Shown: in pieces, positions 34,213 through 48,633 of the stretch | How positions within the stretch are numbered: the stretch's first letter is position 1 | Layout of the letters: every line of letters starts with the position of its first letter | Assembly: GCA_038883335.1 (NCBI GenBank) | Contig: JAVZMI010000001.1 | Span: forward strand, 51,696 to 115,695 | DNA from: Candidatus Bathyarchaeia archaeon | Lineage (GTDB): Archaea; Thermoproteota; Bathyarchaeia; Hecatellales; Hecatellaceae | Reading direction: 5' to 3' | DNA: 64,000 nucleotides | Notes under the pieces: model-generated | What the model saw: only the letters and a program-made list of their open reading frames with translations | Database searches by the model: none | What the model was told of the DNA's origin: nothing | Position numbers and translations under genes: made by a program

Positions 34213-36273
34213 TTAAGCCCGAGCCCTTTTCACATAGCCATCCCGAGGGGTATATATGGTGCCATCACTCTTCAGCCGCCGCACATAGCCCTCAGCGTTA
34301 CTCCTACTTATCTTGTATTCGGCTTCGAGACGTTGATAGAGCACTTCAAGGTCAACCTCACCTGCCTCTTTCTCTATTTCTCCTATCAACTTTAACGTGG
34401 TGGTCAAACCTTCTTTCACAGTCTTAGGAACCCCAGTCATCACAACATCAATGTCCACCAACCCTGCCTCCCTAACCGCGCCAACATCTCTGAGGGACTT
34501 CTCCATTATCTTGATTGCCGCCTCAGCATCCATAGCAGTCACAGTGTCCCTCAGAGCAGCTCTCGCTCTGGCCTCAGCCAACCTGACTAAAGCCTCCAGC
34601 TGCCGCGCAGTTATAGCGATGGGGGACTCTTCCAGATCGCTACCAGATGACTCCCTCATCTTCAAATAGAAGCTTCTAAGCCGCTTAGCCGCCTCCTCAC
34701 TTAGCTTGGGGTGTACCCTTGTTTTAGCGTAGCTTATGTATTTTCTTAGGAGATCAGCAGGTATCGGTGGCGCGGCAGCTGAGCCGGCTGACCTGTGAAC
34801 TTTTAGGATGTGCTCCGAGAGAGCCTCGTCGAAATCCCTAGCTGGTTTGTCTTTCTGTATGAATATAAGGTCGAATCTTGAAAGTATGACTATGGGGATG
34901 TTAATATTCTCGGATACTGTCAACCGGTCCTCATACCGCCCGAACTTTGGGTTTGCCGCAGCCAGTATCGACGCCCGCGCATTCAAGGTAGCCACGATAC
35001 CAGCCTTAGCCACGCTGACAGTCTGCTGCTCCATCATCTCATGCATAGCTACACGATCCTCATCTCTCATCTTGTCGATCTCGTCCACTGAAGCTAAACC
35101 TTTATCGGCGAGTACAAGAGCGCCAGCCTCAAGTGCCATTCCCCCACTTTTCTCCCTCAGAACCGCTGCGGTGAGGCCGGCGGCGGTAGTTCCACGCCCA
35201 GTCGTGAAAAGCCCTCGAGGTGATAGGCGGGCTACATATCGCAGTAGCTGAGACTTCGCCGTTCCCGGATCTCCCACTAAAAGTACATGAATATCTCCAC
35301 GTATCGAGACACCCTCTGGTGTTGTCTTGGGCACGCCTCCAAAGAGGAGGTATACGATAGCTTCTTTGATGTCCTCATACCCATAGATAGTCGGCGCAAT
35401 TGAGTCTACAAGATCTTTGTAAAGAAATTCTCTCCTAGCAATCTCCTTTATTTTCCTCTCGTCTTCCGGAGATATCTCTACCTCACCAGTCTCGGTGCTG
35501 ACCGTCTCGATGTGGTTTGCGTCGATTGAAACAGTGAAAGTCCTGAGGCGTCCTTTCCCTGGGATGAACTCTGGCTTAGCCCTGACGACGCCGGTCACTT
35601 TTACCCGATCCCCAGGTCTCGCTGTATCTACAAGGTCGTCTAGAGCTGTAACTTCGATGAAACGGGGAAGCTGCCCTGGAGGTAGATCTTCAGGTCTCTC
35701 CTGAACCCTGAATTCCTGGCAATCCATAAACATGGACTTCTCAACGATGAGTTCGAAGCCTCTCTCCCTCCGGCAGGAGGGGTTCTCGCATCGCGAGGGC
35801 GGTCTAACAAAGGGGCCCTCTTGGTGTTTGAAGATTGTCTCTCCACAGCGGCACTTGAAGGCTGCCTCTACGAGTAAAGGGCGCACTGGGGTGGCGCGTA
35901 TTACAATCCCATCAAAGGAGACCAGTCGGTCAATCTGGTCGGAGCATATCTTTCTGAGGGATGTAGGCTCTAGAAGATTCTTGAATCTAACATAGATTCG
36001 CGTCTTCTTGACAGTCTCAGCATACTCAGGCGCCTCCACCCTCAATTGTGCTAGGAGGGCCTCTCTCGCTTCCTCTTGGTAGGTATCAAAGTTTTTTTGC
36101 AACTTCTGCGCAATGCTACTGTCGAAGATAGATAGATCTAGAAAATCAACTTCGAGAGAACGTCTACCCTCTACCGCCATTTGTTTGATCAGCGTCCTAT
36201 ATTTATTTCCTCTAAAGAACTCTTGGAGCTTTTCCTTAACGTCAAGCGAGGTCTCAACAGCCAACTCATTCAT
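34213..36273 (-). CDS. mcm: MCM replicative helicase
   Basis: 686 aa with the N-terminal Zn finger CRCGE...C..C, Walker A GDPGTAKSQLL, Walker B IDEIDKM and an arginine-finger region. Confidence 0.9.
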   Translation of the reverse strand: MNELAVETSLDVKEKLQEFFRGNKYRTLIKQMAVEGRRSLEVDFLDLSIFDSSIAQKLQKNFDTYQEEAREALLAQLRVEAPEYAETVKKTRIYVRFKNLLEPTSLRKICSDQIDRLVSFDGIVIRATPVRPLLVEAAFKCRCGETIFKHQEGPFVRPPSRCENPSCRRERGFELIVEKSMFMDCQEFRVQERPEDLPPGQLPRFIEVTALDDLVDTARPGDRVKVTGVVRAKPEFIPGKGRLRTFTVSIDANHIETVSTETGEVEISPEDERKIKEIARREFLYKDLVDSIAPTIYGYEDIKEAIVYLLFGGVPKTTPEGVSIRGDIHVLLVGDPGTAKSQLLRYVARLSPRGLFTTGRGTTAAGLTAAVLREKSGGMALEAGALVLADKGLASVDEIDKMRDEDRVAMHEMMEQQTVSVAKAGIVATLNARASILAAANPKFGRYEDRLTVSENINIPIVILSRFDLIFIQKDKPARDFDEALSEHILKVHRSAGSAAAPPIPADLLRKYISYAKTRVHPKLSEEAAKRLRSFYLKMRESSGSDLEESPIAITARQLEALVRLAEARARAALRDTVTAMDAEAAIKIMEKSLRDVGAVREAGLVDIDVVMTGVPKTVKEGLTTTLKLIGEIEKEAGEVDLEVLYQRLEAEYKISRSNAEGYVRRLKSDGTIYTPRDGYVKRARA

Positions 36274-36826
36274 CCTCCTGCAAAGGCCAAACTGCTGACT
36301 GCCACTTCTCTACCTCTCCACGAAGTCTCTCATAGAGGGCTCTCTCTTCAGGGGTTAGATTCTGGAATATTGTATCAGATTTACTGTTTAGAGAGGTAAA
36401 GAGAAGGATCTTATTGAGGCGACAGGTGAGAATGTCAATGGACAGCTGGACTGCTTTCTGTAACTCAGCCGCTTTTGCAGGGTTCGCGTAACTTTCTTCC
36501 CTGAGAACTTTAATGAACCTCTTTAAACGTGGGTAGAAATTTTCTGGGAGACCGGAGAGGCGTCGACTGGTTTGCATTGTCTCTTTTAAGTGAATCTTGT
36601 GGAGCTCTGCTAGGTTTATGGGTTCTCTTTCGGGCTGCAACCGTGCCAGACCTAACTTTATGAGCGCCTCAGCTACCCACATCCTAACCTTGAACTGTGT
36701 GTTCTCCACATAAGGGCCGATCTCCTCTCCGGCTACAGTAAGTTTTGGGATTTTCTTCGAAGCTATTAACGCTGCAGGACTGTGTTCATACCGTATATTA
36801 TACACGGTGAAGGGATGCGAAGACAT
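36266..36826 (-). CDS. Putative GINS subunit (Gins23-like), co-operonic with mcm
   Basis: 186 aa. Its stop overlaps the mcm start by 8 nt, as in crenarchaeal gins23-mcm operons. Sequence similarity to GINS was not verified. Confidence 0.35.
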   Translation of the reverse strand: MSSHPFTVYNIRYEHSPAALIASKKIPKLTVAGEEIGPYVENTQFKVRMWVAEALIKLGLARLQPEREPINLAELHKIHLKETMQTSRRLSGLPENFYPRLKRFIKVLREESYANPAKAAELQKAVQLSIDILTCRLNKILLFTSLNSKSDTIFQNLTPEERALYERLRGEVEKWQSAVWPLQEDE

Positions 36827-40843: not shown

Positions 40844-41158
40844 GTGGCAAGGTTGTCCGAAGAGAACCTTTGGAGTCAACTTAGACTCCTATCTCAAAAG
40901 GATGTAAGAAGAGTTTTATGCGAACTTTGCTTAGCCCCTGGTAGGAAAATGTCGCTTAAAGACCTAGCCTCTAGAACAGGGATCCCTTACACAACCGTAT
41001 ACCAGAAGATACAAGCAATGAGATCCGCAAGCCTGATTGATATGAAAGGAACGAAAAGAGAAGGCTTCACTGTCTATTTGAGAGACTTCGAACTACCGCC
41101 ACTTACCCCTGAAAGAATATGCGAGTTGGAGGGACGACCACTACCCAACATATTATGA
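40844..41158 (+). CDS. Winged-helix transcriptional regulator (ArsR/MarR-like)
   Basis: 104 aa with the HTH MSLKDLASRTGIPYTTVYQKIQAMRSASLI. Confidence 0.5.
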   Translation: MARLSEENLWSQLRLLSQKDVRRVLCELCLAPGRKMSLKDLASRTGIPYTTVYQKIQAMRSASLIDMKGTKREGFTVYLRDFELPPLTPERICELEGRPLPNIL

Positions 41159-41823
41159 GAGGGCAGATCTTGAAAGGAAACTATGTGGTCGTAGGGCTCA
41201 CCAATGAAAATGTTTGGAAAGAAGCTTTAAGATGCATTCGTAGAAATGGAGAATATATTACGGACCCTCAAAATCTAGAGAAAACCCAGGAGGTTCTAAA
41301 TCTAATCACCAGCATATTGAAGCCCTCTAACACGCTGCCTAGAGCATTCTCTAGAGACACGAAGATCAACGATCACCCCCACCTATTAGAAGGTCTAGTC
41401 AGACCTATCCCCGGCTTTAGCCCAGGAACACATCTCTGGGAATGGGCACTCCCTAGAGGACGACTGAATCAGATCGAAGATAACGTGACGAAAGTTCTCA
41501 GAAACAATCTACTCAGCCGCCGTGCAGTGGCATTAACTTTCCATCCAGGGATGGACTCTGAGCACATCCTCAACCCCCGCTATAGCTTCCCAGCTATACA
41601 GATTGTTGACTTCAAGTATAGGGAAGGGAGTCTACATCTGACCGCCTACCTGAGGTCTTGTGACATATATTCTTGGTGGCCGATAAACGTCGTCCAAGCC
41701 TACAGACTCCTCAAGAAAGTAGGAGAGAAACTTGACTTAAGTATAGGAACGCTCACATTGATGATCAGTAGCGCCCATGTCAAAGCAAGAAACCTAAAAA
41801 GGATTGAAACAATACTAGTTTAA
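41155..41823 (+). CDS. Thymidylate synthase (ThyA-fold) homolog lacking the catalytic cysteine
   Basis: 222 aa. It aligns by eye to E. coli ThyA. RRAVALTFHPG matches RRIIVSAWN, AYLRSCDIYSWWPINVVQAYRLL matches [22 protein letters not shown], and GTLTLMISSAHV matches GDFVWTGGDTHLY. The nucleophile motif P-C-H is replaced by P-R-Y. The start was taken at the internal ATG 41155; the ORF begins at 41119. Confidence 0.6.
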   Translation: MRGQILKGNYVVVGLTNENVWKEALRCIRRNGEYITDPQNLEKTQEVLNLITSILKPSNTLPRAFSRDTKINDHPHLLEGLVRPIPGFSPGTHLWEWALPRGRLNQIEDNVTKVLRNNLLSRRAVALTFHPGMDSEHILNPRYSFPAIQIVDFKYREGSLHLTAYLRSCDIYSWWPINVVQAYRLLKKVGEKLDLSIGTLTLMISSAHVKARNLKRIETILV

Positions 41824-42896: not shown

Positions 42897-43100
42897 ATGG
42901 ATAAAGGAAAAGGGGTTAATCGACTCATCTATCTTCCAAACCAGATAGATGAAATCGTAGAAACCACTAGAAGAAGACTTGGCTATTCGAGAAGTAGCTT
43001 CTACCGTTACGCCGTAACGCTCCTTCTCCAAGACCTCAACATTCTAACGAAGACCGTGAACGCTTCAATCGAGAAGGAGGGGGAAACGAAAAATGTCTGA
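42897..43100 (+). CDS. Ribbon-helix-helix (CopG/Arc/MetJ-like) DNA-binding protein
   Basis: 67 aa. VNRLIYLPNQIDEIVETTRRRLGYSRSSFYRYAV fits the beta-strand plus two helices of an RHH. Such proteins are common in archaeal plasmids and viruses. Confidence 0.45.
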   Translation: MDKGKGVNRLIYLPNQIDEIVETTRRRLGYSRSSFYRYAVTLLLQDLNILTKTVNASIEKEGETKNV

Positions 43101-43348: not shown

Positions 43349-45709
43349 TTGTTGCCCACGTCTCCTCAACGCTCTGAGAGAAACCCCCCCATCAACCAAA
43401 AAGGTGAAACGGAGATGAGCGAAGCGGCTAACCAAACTTGTAAAACATGCGGAGCGATCATGGAGCGGGGGAAGTGCCCCAAATGCACACCTTTTGAAGA
43501 GTTTATTAACCTTCCACTGGCGTCATGTGTGAATTGCGGTCACTATTTAGGCTTAGAGTGCCCCAGAGCTTCAATACACCAAGAGAATAGGCGAACCCGC
43601 ACCTTCACTGCAGACGACTATAAAATCTGTGAAAAGTGGACGTTAGCCATCAGAACTGCGGATGGCACAGTTTATAGACCTCTGGTGAACAAGGGAATCT
43701 CCGCTCATCCAGCCTCTCTCTTCCATAGCGGAGAAAACGGCATCATAGTTGGTGAGCTGACCTTCGCCCGTTCAGAAGTGGAAAAAACAAAGAAGGAAGA
43801 CCCAATAAAGACTAGAGAGATAACCGTTTATCTTTTTTGGTGCCACCACCACAACCACGAGCTCCAACTTTACTTTAAATCGCTCAGTGCAGTGGACGCC
43901 ATTCCCTATGGTGATAAAGAGATCTACCTCGAGAAGGATAACCTTGTGAAAGACCCAATTCAGACGTTGATACCGTTAGAGACTGTGGAGCGGGTTGCGG
44001 CTAGCCCTGAAGAGGCAAACAAAGAAGCGGAGTTCCCCGCAATTTTCAGACAGGTAAAGACAGAGCTCAGACGTTTTCTCAACCTAGAGTGGGATCCACG
44101 GCTTTACGATTTATTGGCATGTTACATTATCGCAACATACTTCTTCGACGCATTCCAAACGTTCCCATGGCTTTATTTCTATGGCTTTCAGGGATGCGGA
44201 AAAACAAGAGGAGCCCTAACGGTCACATATATGGCTAGACACGGTCACATGGTCACAAAACCGAGTGACGCTTCCATCTTCCGACTATGCCACGCCATCA
44301 AGCCCACCTTATGTGTGGACGAGGGACTGTTAGGACGGTCAGCTTGGAGTTTCGCCCGATCCACATTCAAGAAAGGCGTCAAGGTTCCACGAGTCGAGAA
44401 GACCCCACGAGAAGAGTTCGTTATTTCGCTCTTCGACTTGTACATGCCACTAGTCTTCGCTTCAACTAAGAAGCCCACTGAAGCGGGGGGGTTGAATGCG
44501 GATGAGGCACGTGCAATATTCATCCACATGGAACGAGCTCGAGACCCTATAGGTCGGGATCCCACGCCAGAAGACTTTGCCGCTCTAAGAGATCGGCTCT
44601 ACATGTTGCGGCTCTTCAAGGCTAAATGTGTCGTCGAGACGTCTAAGAACATTAATGTTCCGTTTCTGGGACATGAACGAGAAATATGGACGCCCATCTT
44701 CACGATTGCCAACTTAGTTGGGAAGGACGTTCTCTCTTCTCTCTATAAACTAGCAAACGACCTGTACGCTTCAAAGTTTGTAGAGTTAAATGTGAAAGAG
44801 AAGACAATACTTGACGCCATAGCCCTCCTATTCAAAGAAACGAACGAAAAAATTGTGTGTTTCACACCTTCTTCTCTTCAAGCGTACATCAAAACTGTGC
44901 TTATAGAAAGCGGAGAGTACGACGAACTCCACTTTCCAAAGATATGGAACGTGTATCTCATAGGCAGGCTCCTTTCAAGGATGAAACTCACACCCAAACG
45001 GGACACGGCTCGAAAATACTATATCACCCAGCCTCAGTTCGCCAAGCTTGAAAAACAATTTGGTATAGAGCTCGACGTTTTCGACGTTTTCGACGTTAAT
45101 GTGGAAGAACCATCTACCCCCACTTCAGACCCCAATACCCTATCCCTAAAATTAACGTCGAATTCGTCGAATTCGTCGAACGATAAAAAAGAAAGCTTAG
45201 ACAACGCCTCTTTAAACGAAAAAACCTTAGAAAAAGGCGAATTTAGAGATAGTGTTAAAAATAAAGCTTCTCAACCTGAAATAGAAGCTAAAAAAGACGA
45301 ACAGACCGCTCTAGAGAGTGAAAGTTTCGACGTTTTCGACGTTTTCGACGTTAATGTGGAAGAACCCCCTACCCCCACTTCAGACCCCAATACCCTATCC
45401 CTAAAATTAACGTCGAATTCGTCGAATTCGTCGAACGACGAGAGGGGGAACGGCTCTCATGGTGGCTTTAATGATGTTTCTTGCGGCACTTCTAACAGTG
45501 GTTCTGTTGGCGTTTCTAGTGAGGTTTCTAGTTGCACTGTAGAGAAGCACCACTGTCTCACAACGGAGGGTAGTGAACCTCAACCGATGGTCAGTGGAGT
45601 ACCAGGTCTCCCACCAAGGTTCAAATGTGAGATCTGTGGACGGAAGTTCCGTTTCCCCTACGATGTGCTCTCACATAAGCAAACCGACCACGGTTTAAAG
45701 GTGGTCTAA
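43349..45709 (+). CDS. Element-encoded Zn-finger/P-loop NTPase (putative replication helicase or initiator) with a C-terminal tandem-repeat region and a C2H2 zinc finger
   Basis: 786 aa. The N-terminal Zn-ribbons are CKTCG...CPKC and CVNCGH...C. Walker A is GFQGCGKT and Walker B is LCVDEG. It is followed by two copies of FDVFDVFDVNVEEP(S/P)TPTSDPNTLSLKLTSNSSNSSND and a terminal C2H2 finger FKCEICGRKFRFPYDVLSHKQTDH. Confidence 0.55.
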   Translation: MLPTSPQRSERNPPINQKGETEMSEAANQTCKTCGAIMERGKCPKCTPFEEFINLPLASCVNCGHYLGLECPRASIHQENRRTRTFTADDYKICEKWTLAIRTADGTVYRPLVNKGISAHPASLFHSGENGIIVGELTFARSEVEKTKKEDPIKTREITVYLFWCHHHNHELQLYFKSLSAVDAIPYGDKEIYLEKDNLVKDPIQTLIPLETVERVAASPEEANKEAEFPAIFRQVKTELRRFLNLEWDPRLYDLLACYIIATYFFDAFQTFPWLYFYGFQGCGKTRGALTVTYMARHGHMVTKPSDASIFRLCHAIKPTLCVDEGLLGRSAWSFARSTFKKGVKVPRVEKTPREEFVISLFDLYMPLVFASTKKPTEAGGLNADEARAIFIHMERARDPIGRDPTPEDFAALRDRLYMLRLFKAKCVVETSKNINVPFLGHEREIWTPIFTIANLVGKDVLSSLYKLANDLYASKFVELNVKEKTILDAIALLFKETNEKIVCFTPSSLQAYIKTVLIESGEYDELHFPKIWNVYLIGRLLSRMKLTPKRDTARKYYITQPQFAKLEKQFGIELDVFDVFDVNVEEPSTPTSDPNTLSLKLTSNSSNSSNDKKESLDNASLNEKTLEKGEFRDSVKNKASQPEIEAKKDEQTALESESFDVFDVFDVNVEEPPTPTSDPNTLSLKLTSNSSNSSNDERGNGSHGGFNDVSCGTSNSGSVGVSSEVSSCTVEKHHCLTTEGSEPQPMVSGVPGLPPRFKCEICGRKFRFPYDVLSHKQTDHGLKVV
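45072..45438. repeat. Two 112-nt near-identical direct repeats (45072-45183 and 45327-45438, period 255 nt) inside the 786-aa ORF, with embedded micro-repeats (tcgacgtttt x2.5; tcgaattcg x2)
   Basis: The copies were aligned directly. They differ only in ccatct versus ccccct. They encode the duplicated low-complexity protein segment. Confidence 0.8.
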
Positions 45710-46657
45710 ATGCGGAGAGAAGACTTCTGGTTTGAGTGGTTCGGCTTGTTCGGCAGAGAGGTTGGTAACCCGTTTCGGTTCTTCGTAGACAACCCTATAG
45801 ATTTCGTCAAGTTTGTTGAGAAATGTGAAGCGGCGAAGTCTCCAGTCTTCATGTCAGTGAACCATTATCGGGATCGAGACACGGTTTACGCTCTCGACAA
45901 GCTTTTCTTCGATTTTGACAACGCAACAGAGCCTGAGAAAGCCATCTATGAGGCTCTCCAGTTCGCAGAGATTTTAAAACGGTTCTACCATGCGGAGCCC
46001 TTAATCGTTCGCTCAGGTCTCAAAGGTGCGGGTGTCTACGTTTTCTTTCCACAAGCCATAACTGGAGCCCCCGAAGACTTAGCAGAGGTCTATCGCAAAG
46101 TCGCCAGCCTCATCTTGAAGGGTCTCCAGTTCTCCACGTTAGACCATCAGGTTCTGGGGGACGTTAAACGGCTAAGTCGGGTTCCTTATACACGCCACGA
46201 GAAGAGCGGTCAAATGTGCATCCCCATAAACGAGAAAGGAGTGGAAGTCAACCTGAGCGGGGAAGACTTGGCGAAAATCAGAGAGAGAAGCCCCCTACCC
46301 GCTCACATGCTCAAACTTGCATGGCACCACATCTTCTTGGAGCGGAAGGTGAGAGCGGGGGAAGGAAACCGCAACCAAGCCCCCCCTTTCAATAAGATTA
46401 GAACACCAGTTCAAGACCTCATATTGTTAGCTAAGGCTGGAGCCCACCTTTCCCACCACGGATACCTAGCCATACTCTTCGAACTCATCAACAACGGTTA
46501 CACAGACGACCAGATCCTTTCCCTCTTTAGAACGCTCTTCAAATCCAAGTTTAACGAGAAAGAGACCCGCTACTTCATCACGCATGCCCGAAAGAAACGC
46601 TACCTACCCTTCAGCATCTCACGGGTAAAACATGAACTAAATCTACTCTCACCTTAG
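45710..46657 (+). CDS. Archaeo-eukaryotic primase (AEP/prim-pol) superfamily protein
   Basis: 315 aa. It has the catalytic acidic motif LFFDFDN (hhhDhD), SGLKGAGVYVFF (SGxRG-like motif II) and LSRVPYTRHEKSG (motif III). Its start abuts the stop of the upstream NTPase gene. Confidence 0.6.
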   Translation: MRREDFWFEWFGLFGREVGNPFRFFVDNPIDFVKFVEKCEAAKSPVFMSVNHYRDRDTVYALDKLFFDFDNATEPEKAIYEALQFAEILKRFYHAEPLIVRSGLKGAGVYVFFPQAITGAPEDLAEVYRKVASLILKGLQFSTLDHQVLGDVKRLSRVPYTRHEKSGQMCIPINEKGVEVNLSGEDLAKIRERSPLPAHMLKLAWHHIFLERKVRAGEGNRNQAPPFNKIRTPVQDLILLAKAGAHLSHHGYLAILFELINNGYTDDQILSLFRTLFKSKFNEKETRYFITHARKKRYLPFSISRVKHELNLLSP

Positions 46658-46669
46658 GGGGACAGGCAT

Positions 46670-46972
46670 ATGAAGAAACATGTTCAACCATGCGGAAGAG
46701 GCAAAACTAAGCCTCAGACCCCTACCCTCCAAACGAAAAAACCCCCCGAAAAAACCGTGAAACCCGAACCGAACAAGAAGCGGAGAAGAGAAAAGAGAGC
46801 CCGCACACCAGTAGAATACCTCGTAGCATTCGAGAACGCCAACCTCATAGTGGAAGCCTCTTTCGCTACACCACCAAATAGAGCCGCACATAAAATTTTC
46901 CAGATTCAACAAGGTCTCCGCAAGTTCAACAGAAGCACCCGCACAGTGAAGAGAAAACTTGGCATAGTATAA
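46670..46972 (+). CDS. Small lysine/arginine-rich protein, hypothetical
   Basis: 100 aa, very basic and proline-rich at the N-terminus (KKPPEKTVKPEPNKKRRREKRAR). It may be nucleic-acid binding. Confidence 0.25.
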   Translation: MKKHVQPCGRGKTKPQTPTLQTKKPPEKTVKPEPNKKRRREKRARTPVEYLVAFENANLIVEASFATPPNRAAHKIFQIQQGLRKFNRSTRTVKRKLGIV

Positions 46973-47385: not shown

Positions 47386-48633
47386 TTAAGTTAGAAGCTT
47401 CCTTATCTCCGCAACCTCTTCCAACGCCCTGTTAATCCTTCCAGTGAGCTCCGTGTTCTCCAACTCCAACCTTGCCATCCTGCTCTTAAGCTCCAAGTTT
47501 TCTGCAGAGAGGTTCTCTATCACCTTCTGGAGGCTTTGGATGCGTTCATCCACCTTGGCGTCAACCTTCCTCTCAATCTCCGACGGGTCGACTGGAGGGG
47601 GGGTTATGCTCAGTAAGCGTTCCCGTTCGAGATACATCTTCCTGAGGCTCTCAAACTGGAGCCCTTTATACGCTTCCGCCATCTCTCCGATTGCATGCCC
47701 TAACCAGAAGTCAACTATGGTGTCTGGTACGCCTGAGTTAATCATTATGCTACCGAAGCTTTCACGCAAGGCATGGGGACTTAACGGGTTGATGTCTCTA
47801 CCGTTATTATAGGGGTCTATGAAGCCCGCCTTTAATGCCACCTCTCTCAACATGTTCTGGACTAGGTGTGGTTGAAGTGGAGCCCCATGTGGTCGTTCCC
47901 TTTGGAATAGTGGCGAACCGTCTTGAAGCTTCACACCTCTGGCTTCAAGGTCTCGGAGGTAGACTTTGACTGCTTCTATTGCGTCACGCCCAAGGAATGT
48001 GAAATATTCCACTCCAGTTTTCGGTCGGTAGAGGTCTAGCTTGAGGGGGATCTCTCCAGACTCGAGACCTCTCCGTATGTCTCCATATTTGAGACTGCAC
48101 AGTGTCGAGACATCCATCCCGCTTTGAAACATGGTGAGAATGACGGCTTTGTCACGGGGGTTCCTTGCATGATCCACCAACAACTTGACCTGACTAGAGC
48201 TCAACCTCATCCTTCGGTTGGTTACCTTCGGTTTGGGAAGCCTGTAGCGGCCCTTAAGGCGCACTTCAACGTCGAAAGTCGAGTAGAAGCTTCTTATGGC
48301 GGTTATGTAGAGGTTTGCGGCTTTATCGCTCAAACCCTTCTTGACTTCTGTATGTTCGCATCTTCCACGCCTTTTTATGGGGTAATCCTTTTTCAAATAT
48401 TGGTAGAACCCGACTATCCTGTTGAGGACTATGCCACGCCTTTGGCGTATGTCTCTGGTTTGGTCTTCTACGGCTTCGTCGATGAGTTGGCTTGCGGTTA
48501 GACCTGTGAAGGCTAGGTATGCTCTGATGGCGGTTTTGTAGCTTGCTTTGGTAGACGGTTTAGTTACGGGGTCAAGCCACCTTGATATGGCGGGGTCTTC
48601 TAAGTTTATCAGCTCAATTTGTGGAGACGACAT
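47386..48633 (-). CDS. int: Tyrosine recombinase/integrase (phage-integrase family), full length
   Basis: 415 aa with an N-terminal SAM-like domain. The C-terminal catalytic domain has R...HALRESFGS (H-x-x-R)...GHAIGEMAEAYKG with a terminal Tyr region. The gene is not split, which points to a pNOB8-type integrase. Confidence 0.8.
   Translation of the reverse strand: MSSPQIELINLEDPAISRWLDPVTKPSTKASYKTAIRAYLAFTGLTASQLIDEAVEDQTRDIRQRRGIVLNRIVGFYQYLKKDYPIKRRGRCEHTEVKKGLSDKAANLYITAIRSFYSTFDVEVRLKGRYRLPKPKVTNRRMRLSSSQVKLLVDHARNPRDKAVILTMFQSGMDVSTLCSLKYGDIRRGLESGEIPLKLDLYRPKTGVEYFTFLGRDAIEAVKVYLRDLEARGVKLQDGSPLFQRERPHGAPLQPHLVQNMLREVALKAGFIDPYNNGRDINPLSPHALRESFGSIMINSGVPDTIVDFWLGHAIGEMAEAYKGLQFESLRKMYLERERLLSITPPPVDPSEIERKVDAKVDERIQSLQKVIENLSAENLELKSRMARLELENTELTGRINRALEEVAEIRKLLT

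Follow-up and report, generated by a model that had tools for sequence, protein, structure and literature searches.

The stretch of DNA analysed here (the window) comprises 64,000 nucleotides (nt) of contig JAVZMI010000001.1 from a Candidatus Bathyarchaeia archaeon (assembly GCA_038883335.1, positions 51,696 to 115,695). It holds a gene predicted to encode the replication initiator-helicase of an integrated mobile element, and inside this gene lie two near-identical repeat modules, placed between the region coding for the conserved helicase core and that coding for a C-terminal zinc-finger motif. Coordinates of all features are collected in Table 1. The open reading frame (ORF) begins with TTG and has a maximal length of 786 amino acids (aa). 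Its product matched P0001 (764 aa, hypothetical), a protein from a Bathyarchaeia metagenome-assembled genome (MAG) at NCBI, over its full sequence; the annotated start of P0001 corresponds to M23, so that the ATG at 43415 is the probable start and the product would have 764 aa. The homologues used for alignment with the window protein were from Bathyarchaeia, Methanomethylicia and Nitrososphaeria.

Table 1. Features of the helicase locus and of the compared modules (window positions, unless a locus is named).
Feature	Position	Strand	Basis
Small 67-aa gene upstream of helicase	42897..43100	+	Homologue upstream of helicase in L019
Predicted initiator-helicase gene	43349..45709	+	ORF; 100% match to 764-aa NCBI protein; 18 homologues, 31-40% identity
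N-terminal zinc-ribbon motif CxxC-x8-CxxC (C31, C34, C43, C46)	43439..43486	+	Sequence
AAA+ ATPase centre, Walker A to Walker B	44183..44323	+	
Walker A, GFQGCGKT (G279-T286)	44183-44206	+	
Walker B, D324 E325	44318-44323	+	
Winged-helix-like end of conserved core (helix IGRLLSRM, wing KLTPKRDTARKYYIT)	44852..45058	+	AF2 secondary structure, model residues 480-548
Module 1 left array, 3 x TTCGACGTT (first unit CTCGACGTT), encodes (L)DVFDVFDV	45071..45097	+	
Module 1 spacer, top strand C-rich	45098..45153	+	
Module 1 right array, minus-strand units TTCGACGTT, TTCGACGAA, TTCGACGAA, encodes SNSSNSSN	45154..45180	-	
A-rich/AT-rich 143-nt inter-module segment, candidate unwinding region	45184..45326	.	
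Module 2 left array, 3 x TTCGACGTT	45326..45352	+	
Module 2 spacer, two adjacent bases differing from module 1 (AT to CC)	45353..45408	+	
Module 2 right array, three inverted 9-mers	45409..45435	-	
C-terminal C2H2-type zinc-finger motif, residues 758-781, C-x2-C-x12-H-x4-H	45620..45691	+	Pattern in sequence
Primase-polymerase gene, AEP + PriL/PriCT-like C-terminus	45710..46657	+	Pfam, PHROG matches
Tyrosine integrase of element	47386..48633	-	Pfam Phage_integrase 3e-18
L011 / L014 modules compared	L011 2640-2795; L014 3215-3370		

The direct repeat copies extend over 45072-45183 and 45327-45438. Their length of 112 nt and the start-to-start distance of 255 nt were as given in the initial annotation; identity was 110/112 (98%) instead of about 95%, and the two deviating bases are neighbours in the spacer (copy positions 41-42). 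The micro-satellites reported for each copy were recovered as TCGACGTTT (2.9 units) and CGTCGAATT (2.8 units), and with 2 differences in 112 nt the duplication is indeed recent-looking. Each copy is in itself an inverted repeat with 30-nt arms (87% complementary) and 50 nt between them. Three tandem 9-mers (TTCGACGTT) are followed by a spacer and then by three inverted 9-mers, which makes each copy a palindromic module. A scan of the window for inverted repeats (24-nt arms, at least 20/24 complementary, spacer 10-140) yielded exactly two matches, namely the two copies. The 12 nine-mers within 45071-45435 hold 8 of the 10 exact matches to the 9-mer in the window; with up to one mismatch, 20 matches were observed and 9.3 were expected. 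The 3' part of the module 1 spacer, ACCCTATCCCTAAAATT, is similar to a conserved box' of the relatives (ACCCCTTTCAAAA), and the window retains only this degenerate right-hand copy of the box (45135-45151).

The 143-nt segment between the modules has a guanine-plus-cytosine (GC) content of 0.34 (gene, 0.47), which is in the lowest 1.2% of all 143-nt segments of the 64 kb. It consists to 47% of A (top 0.03%) and is itself not duplicated. A weak 41-nt direct repeat (71%; 45186-45226 and 46703-46743, ending in AAACGAAAAAACC) joins it to the start of a basic 100-aa ORF downstream of the primase gene; this similarity may be due to chance.

For comparison, 35 loci were taken from genome and metagenome collections and inspected at the DNA level; eight of these were unusable, since they end too early or match the core only in part. 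Period-9 inverted arrays were present in 31 of the 34 related loci readable at that place, at the same position just past the core. Exactly one period-9 inverted repeat was detected in each of 24 loci, always directly after the core-coding part. A strong inverted repeat with period-9 arrays was also found at this place in L025, and L021 has the module with a spacer of 148 nt; no period-9 inverted repeat followed the core in L028, which is frameshifted. In 18 of 19 loci checked for frame, the module lies inside the ORF, between core and C-terminal domain, and the ORF runs on beyond it into a zinc-ribbon, C2H2 or winged-helix tail. A protein-level search for reverse-complement-compatible tripeptide repeats in 133 distant relatives gave 12 matches and was too strict. 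Instead, eight of the 133 were examined at the DNA level, and 6 of these 8 distant members (profile E 1e-35 to 1e-99) had the module inside the gene. In three of them (L038, L041 and L043) the arrays are reversed, with the C-rich strand unit first and the G-rich unit second, and are separated by short spacers (0-66 nt); across the wider family, the mirrored arrays thus have no constant orientation.

About 15 distinct types of 9-mer were distinguished, including TTCGACGTT, GGTGGATTA, GTGACGGTT, GAGGTAGGG and GTCGGTCAA. In most relatives, three outer iterons are followed by a box composed of an A-run and a G-run (AAAAAGGGGTAT), by one inner iteron of opposite orientation and by the centre. The second half mirrors the first, so that the whole is an imperfect palindrome whose arms reach 62-72 nt. 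In most relatives, the GC content between the arms is lower than that of the locus (for example, 0.38 vs 0.59 in L002). The A-run/G-run box is kept irrespective of the iteron type and may be read by a conserved factor. Its form AAAA(N)GGGGGTAT and the mirror form ATACCCCCTTTAAAA are common to loci with differing iterons, for instance at 1690-1705 and 1750-1768 of L009.

The arrays are also visible at the protein level. A tripeptide repeat directly follows the core in nearly all of the 19 aligned proteins, and most of them have a second, different tripeptide repeat about 20-50 residues after the first. The second repeat corresponds to the reverse-complement reading of the first (DVF...SNS, GGL...PPN, GEV...TSP, VVS...TTQ, DGR...RPI). 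Left and right arms of the same locus match at 21.5 of 24 positions on average, compared with 13.9 of 24 for non-cognate arms. Because this left/right pairing recurs with different 9-mers in 31 of the 34 loci, selection acts on the DNA rather than on the peptide, and paired tripeptide repeats such as DVF/SNS, GGL/PPN and GEV/TSP are by-products.

Two pairs of loci were compared in detail. L011 and L014 are 79% identical over an aligned 1.16 kb and 85% identical over the module region; one and the same G-to-T change in each of the eight iterons sets them apart (GGTGGATT vs GGTGTATT), and the boxes are identical. The change replaces Gly by Val in one arm and Pro by Thr in the other. The iterons of this pair show concerted evolution of a multi-copy site. 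L005 and L025 have a 95% identical core and unrelated iterons, with sharp divergence from the wing of the last core domain onwards. L025 retains an array of the L005-type right-hand kind farther downstream: between 1130 and 1260 (compared with 2060-2110 of L005) its own GGGACGGTA module is followed by two additional CCGTCCCC units and these by three units of ACATACACA. Such a mixed arrangement has the appearance of a stage in the replacement of one iteron by another. Neither pattern is explained by a peptide linker, and the existence of a DNA-level element is close to certain.

The number of arrays is fluid in the family. A half-module is tandemly duplicated over 87 nt in L027 (85% identical), a further right array is present in L022, and remnants of a second iteron type were found in L019 and L025. 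Array duplication has occurred several times in the family, the young duplication of the window being one case; a variable copy number, which the initial annotation had thought possible between strains, was thus seen among relatives.

The protein encoded around the modules is an AAA+ initiator-helicase of the self-loading Cch/MCM-like type, as judged from its predicted structure. Its core was modelled with AlphaFold2 (AF2) at a pLDDT of about 80-96 and has an AAA+ fold with Walker A and Walker B; the motifs GxxGxGK(T/S) and DE are invariant across the 19 aligned sequences. From the topology of the model, the end of the core would be a winged helix. This part adjoins the repeats on their upstream side, and W533, G539, L542 and Y557 are invariant in the homologue alignment. 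The N-terminal zinc-ribbon region was of low confidence in the model. Its CxxC pairs occur in relatives as well, one of which is named a TFIIB-type zinc ribbon protein by NCBI. Homologue P0012 is labelled 'ribosomal protein S27AE' by one source, a misannotation that evidently arose from the N-terminal zinc ribbon and could spread.

The core was without match in Pfam (including MCM and DUF927), PHROGs, NCBIfam and PDB sequences, in single-sequence as well as profile searches. No curated family model covers it, and only structure comparison placed the protein. The nearest structural neighbours were among Cch, MCM and the Rep protein of Staphylococcus aureus pathogenicity islands (SaPI), and the best match was the Cch helicase of the staphylococcal cassette chromosome mec (SCCmec). 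Cch2 is a paralogue of Cch in other SCCmec types. Foldseek agreed on these neighbours and added ORC1 and the helicase region of NrS-1. The superfamily 3 (SF3) helicases E1 and Rep40 were also among the structural matches; Cch and MCM matched better, and the SF3 or D5-like helicase with PriCT that had been considered initially is not supported. A profile search of the family in a database of 1.84 billion representatives returned at least 244 clusters (50% identity) at E<=1e-30 and 2,575 at E<=1e-10. Distant members are fused to Prim-Pol, AEP-PriCT, a DnaG-type zinc ribbon, DUF3854 or an MCM-type winged helix. Relatives of the helicase were not found in a scan of viral contigs.

Several statements of the initial annotation on this protein can be placed against these data. 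An element-encoded zinc-ribbon/P-loop protein was correctly recognised, as the gene lies in a mobile-element replication module and both motifs are present. The terminal C2H2 finger stands as a pattern; against Pfam zf-C2H2 (PF00096) it scored 18.2 bits (E 0.0035), under the cut-off of 25.2 bits, and the match to the PDB sequence of ZNF692 was weak (E 0.09). A specifically eukaryote-like finger is not supported, since at least one other family member has one (tail of L020). The architecture had been regarded as unusual, which does not hold for a family of this size whose aligned homologues share a layout of core, linker and zinc-binding or winged-helix tail.

Taken together, the two 112-nt copies are probably palindromic iteron modules of a replication origin located inside the element's own initiator-helicase gene. 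The origin would be 45071-45435, within the linker-coding stretch between the AAA+/winged-helix core and the terminal zinc finger. After excision of the element by the integrase, helicase subunits would bind the 9-mers via a DNA-binding domain, for which the winged-helix-like domain encoded directly upstream is the likeliest candidate. By its mirror symmetry, the arrangement of two sets of six 9-mers could place two opposed helicase assemblies around the A-rich 143 nt; this AT-rich centre would melt, the helicases would load, and the adjacent primase-polymerase would prime synthesis. Since the period of 9 is a multiple of 3, the arrays are translatable as tripeptide repeats of a disordered linker. 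The duplication would have raised the number of iterons from 6 to 12, lengthened the linker by 85 aa and put the A-rich 143 nt between two modules, an arrangement that may be compared to SaPI origins.

The role of the winged helix as iteron reader is proposed by analogy with SaPI Rep and Cch2 (PMC9371898, PMC7581432). The terminal zinc-binding or winged helix-turn-helix (wHTH) domains differ among members that share an iteron, which argues against them as readers. The wing diverges jointly with the arrays in the L005/L025 pair, which linkage and phylogeny could also explain, and the wing motif RTGKxRKY accompanies GACG-type iterons and mostly tracks phylogeny (neighbour-joining tree of the ATPase core).

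A number of points weigh against an origin at this place. Its functional part is something that we infer at every step, from binding through melting to priming, and the link between wing and iteron largely follows phylogeny and physical linkage. The window modules are atypical for the family in that they have no inner single iterons and only half of the A-run/G-run box. The spacers within the window modules are not AT-rich (GC 0.50-0.54), and the module centres of some relatives are only mildly so. The module was not found in the distant members L036 and L042. In L041, an intergenic region (about 1700-1900) with a GC content of about 0.22 and a weak inverted repeat could be the origin instead. 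This locus, a contig of 5207 nt, has a terminal direct overlap of 30 nt, so that it probably represents a whole circular element (about 5.2 kb). It encodes the helicase, a helix-turn-helix gene and small ORFs and has no recognisable primase; its iterons occur only within the helicase gene, and it would be a good candidate minimal replicon. GC skew in L041 tracks gene orientation and was uninformative on the origin.

DNA-level selection and co-variation show only that something binds or pairs at the arrays. They could hence be a protein-binding site with a role other than initiation, such as an operator or roadblock, a centromere-like partition site or a site for incompatibility or copy control by handcuffing, bound by the helicase itself or by a small element-encoded DNA-binding protein. 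Candidates for the latter are encoded nearby (the 67-aa gene and a wHTH gene at 40844-41158), the arrays lie upstream of a co-transcribed primase gene whose expression a bound protein could throttle, and L041 has the alternative AT-rich candidate origin. We consider this unlikely: a ParA/ParB-like gene was not seen adjoining the module in the window or in the relatives, operators are usually at promoters and not 1.7 kb inside a gene, and the position after the helicase, the inverted sets of iterons and the AT-rich centre are hallmarks of SaPI and SCCmec origins (PMC9371898, PMC7581432).

Pairing of the arms within one strand would be selected if the modules acted as an mRNA hairpin, with an effect on translation of the C-terminal domain or the primase or on RNA stability, or as a hairpin or cruciform of single-stranded DNA that signals priming or loading. 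The complementary arms, the folding energy of each window module as single-stranded DNA (-24.8 kcal/mol; z = -6.2 vs shuffles) and the long palindromes of the relatives are in line with this. So are the arms of L024, which are mirror-identical at 27/27 positions though the third unit differs from the first two; this symmetry hints at some homogenisation by pairing. Three tandem 9-mers are however unnecessary for a stem, and the A-runs beside the arrays are A-runs of the coding strand in either half, so that complementarity is lost there. Among 94 arm mismatches, 51 were A/T flips, that is transversions, mostly located at the unit junction. G.U pairing could accommodate only 15 of them on the mRNA strand and 16 on the other, and over whole half-palindromes 50/390 mismatches were wobble-compatible on the mRNA strand, which is under the one-in-six expectation. 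The mismatch spectrum fits separate duplex binding sites better than a stem, though extrusion of each module as a hairpin or cruciform would still be feasible. Rfam covariance models gave no family match, only a chance-level hit to a microRNA model (E 0.56, 19 bits vs a gathering score of 211). A folded strand as the selected feature is accordingly rated as quite improbable.

That the second window module is an assembly artefact, expanded by repeats in a MAG contig from a real element with one module, is very unlikely. Short-read assemblers can mis-resolve repeats of about 100 nt; yet the copies differ at two bases and are separated by a unique, frame-open segment of 143 nt, and the duplications in L027 and L022 come from independent assemblies. 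The base differences and parallel cases weigh mildly against an artefact, which would in any case affect only copy number and leave the nature of the module unchanged. Least credible is a mere low-complexity protein linker, expanded by slippage or unequal recombination and without function at the DNA level, as the FDV and SNS segments had first been described. The segment is translated in frame between folded domains, its length is variable among relatives, and the near-identical copies point to a young duplication. Peptide constraint, on the other hand, cannot explain a second tripeptide that is constantly the reverse complement of the first across about 15 9-mers, nor one nucleotide change shared by eight copies with non-conservative residue changes. 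The two peptides are the two strands of one DNA palindrome.

An attachment (att) site of the integrase was rejected as an explanation, since core att sites do not resemble groups of three tandem 9-mers separated by spacers of 28-148 nt. In addition, the module travels with the helicase, and many module loci (mostly short contigs) are without an integrase in the available sequence.

Origins of SV40 large T antigen, papillomavirus E1 and adeno-associated virus Rep consist of palindromic short elements beside an AT-rich tract and are used by two opposed hexamers. The palindromic arrangement of short recognition repeats beside an AT-rich tract is shared by the window, whereas these viral SF3 origins lie in non-coding DNA and are bound through an N-terminal domain. 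The iterons of phage lambda are 4-6 direct 19-bp units, each internally symmetric, and thus differ from a mirrored pair of 9-mer arrays. Lambda O, which acts in bacterial hosts, does not belong to the AAA+ helicases and recruits DnaB through P. As the window protein has an AAA+ fold without homology to lambda O, the comparison is an analogy only. It concerns the position, since the window modules lie within an initiator ORF and are translated as an inter-domain linker, and is valid only if the module is the origin. Lambda and Stx phages carry ori within the central part of gene O, and additional iterons make the O protein longer (PMC7466680). The increase that goes with a changed iteron number amounts to 13 aa in Stx phages (PMC7466680) and to 85 aa in the window.

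The closest systems studied by experiment are SaPI Rep and SCCmec Cch2, which are self-loading and bind short iterons immediately downstream of their own genes via a C-terminal domain; in SaPI Rep this domain is a winged helix, and the SaPI iterons to the left and right of an AT-rich centre are oppositely oriented (PMC9371898, PMC7581432). Common to these systems and the window are the self-loading AAA+ initiator-helicase of an integrated mobile element, its pairing with a primase, and short iterons directly after the DNA-binding C-terminal region of the helicase. In SaPI and SCCmec the iterons are 5-6 nt long and intergenic, past the stop codon, whereas the 9-nt iterons of the window are inside the ORF, which reads on into a zinc-finger or wHTH domain. 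The hosts of the window family are archaeal, and a relationship to Cch at the sequence level was undetectable with Pfam, NCBIfam and PDB sequences. Binding has been demonstrated for SaPI Rep and Cch2; for the window family we infer it.

Archaeal plasmids pTN2, pT26-2 and pRN1 likewise have cassettes of primase-polymerase and helicase and repeat-rich origins, which are predicted in intergenic or downstream non-coding DNA (PMC2926602, PMC4234260); unlike in the window, none is described as translated through. The window primase resembles the AEP and PriL-like layout of PolpTN2 (PMC5862659). Cch-like helicases have been noted in thaumarchaeal integrated elements (PMC6563490), and in the literature searched no in-ORF origin or in-frame palindromic module was described for archaeal Cch-like helicases. 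The best-supported reading is that a self-loading helicase has its iteron origin within the reading frame by which it is itself encoded.

The first base of the primase-polymerase gene directly follows the helicase stop codon. The product, with an archaeo-eukaryotic primase (AEP) domain, matched Pfam DNA_primase_lrg (1.3e-5) and DNA_primase_S (0.015) as well as PHROG primases, and a gene of this kind is also downstream of the helicase in five distinct loci (L002, L005, L007, L015 and L025). A Cas4-like nuclease gene (weak Pfam match) directly follows the helicase in L039 (3753-4373), in the place of the primase. The tyrosine integrase gene of the element is 0.7 kb past the primase-polymerase gene, and integrase homologues were found in L002, L013, L015, L020, L027 and L031. 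Around the element (36-51 kb), only weak 18-32-nt matches were obtained as att-like direct repeats, and no tRNA genes. The 67-aa gene product was without Pfam match and is possibly a ribbon-helix-helix regulator, going by its residue pattern. Farther upstream, a 234-aa thymidylate-synthase-like ORF (40844-41823) overlaps the end of the small wHTH gene and aligns with no more than the C-terminal half of the Pfam model (E 1.9e-10); it may be element cargo or a truncated or divergent ThyA. The genes for the host replicative MCM helicase (all MCM Pfam domains, E 4e-94) and for a GINS subunit (Sld5-like) were located on the minus strand at 34213-36826, about 7 kb from the element helicase, so that the element is integrated close to chromosomal replication genes.

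A broader and more tentative proposal, for which we see a possible but rather doubtful case, is that a large archaeal family spanning Bathyarchaeia, Methanomethylicia and Nitrososphaeria has its origin in frame in the helicase gene, and that origin and wing together make up a portable specificity cassette, exchanged or retuned in one piece. L005/L025 would then represent a swap in a 95% identical core, and L011/L014 the retuning of eight iterons by one base. If so, cassette changes would create new incompatibility groups, and transcription and translation across the origin would couple expression of the initiator to origin firing.

The results are of interest for research on archaeal mobile elements and replication origins. 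For most elements of this kind, AT-rich intergenic DNA is otherwise the basis on which an origin is guessed. If the modules are origins, the origins of hundreds of uncultivated archaeal plasmid- or virus-like elements would be readable from sequence, and a helicase with built-in origin plus a primase would provide candidate minimal replicons for archaeal lineages that lack genetic tools. For annotators, reverse-complement-paired tripeptide repeats would be both a caution and a tool, as they would signal a DNA element and not a protein feature. For the elements themselves, a cis-acting site and its reader would be kept together by nesting one in the gene of the other.

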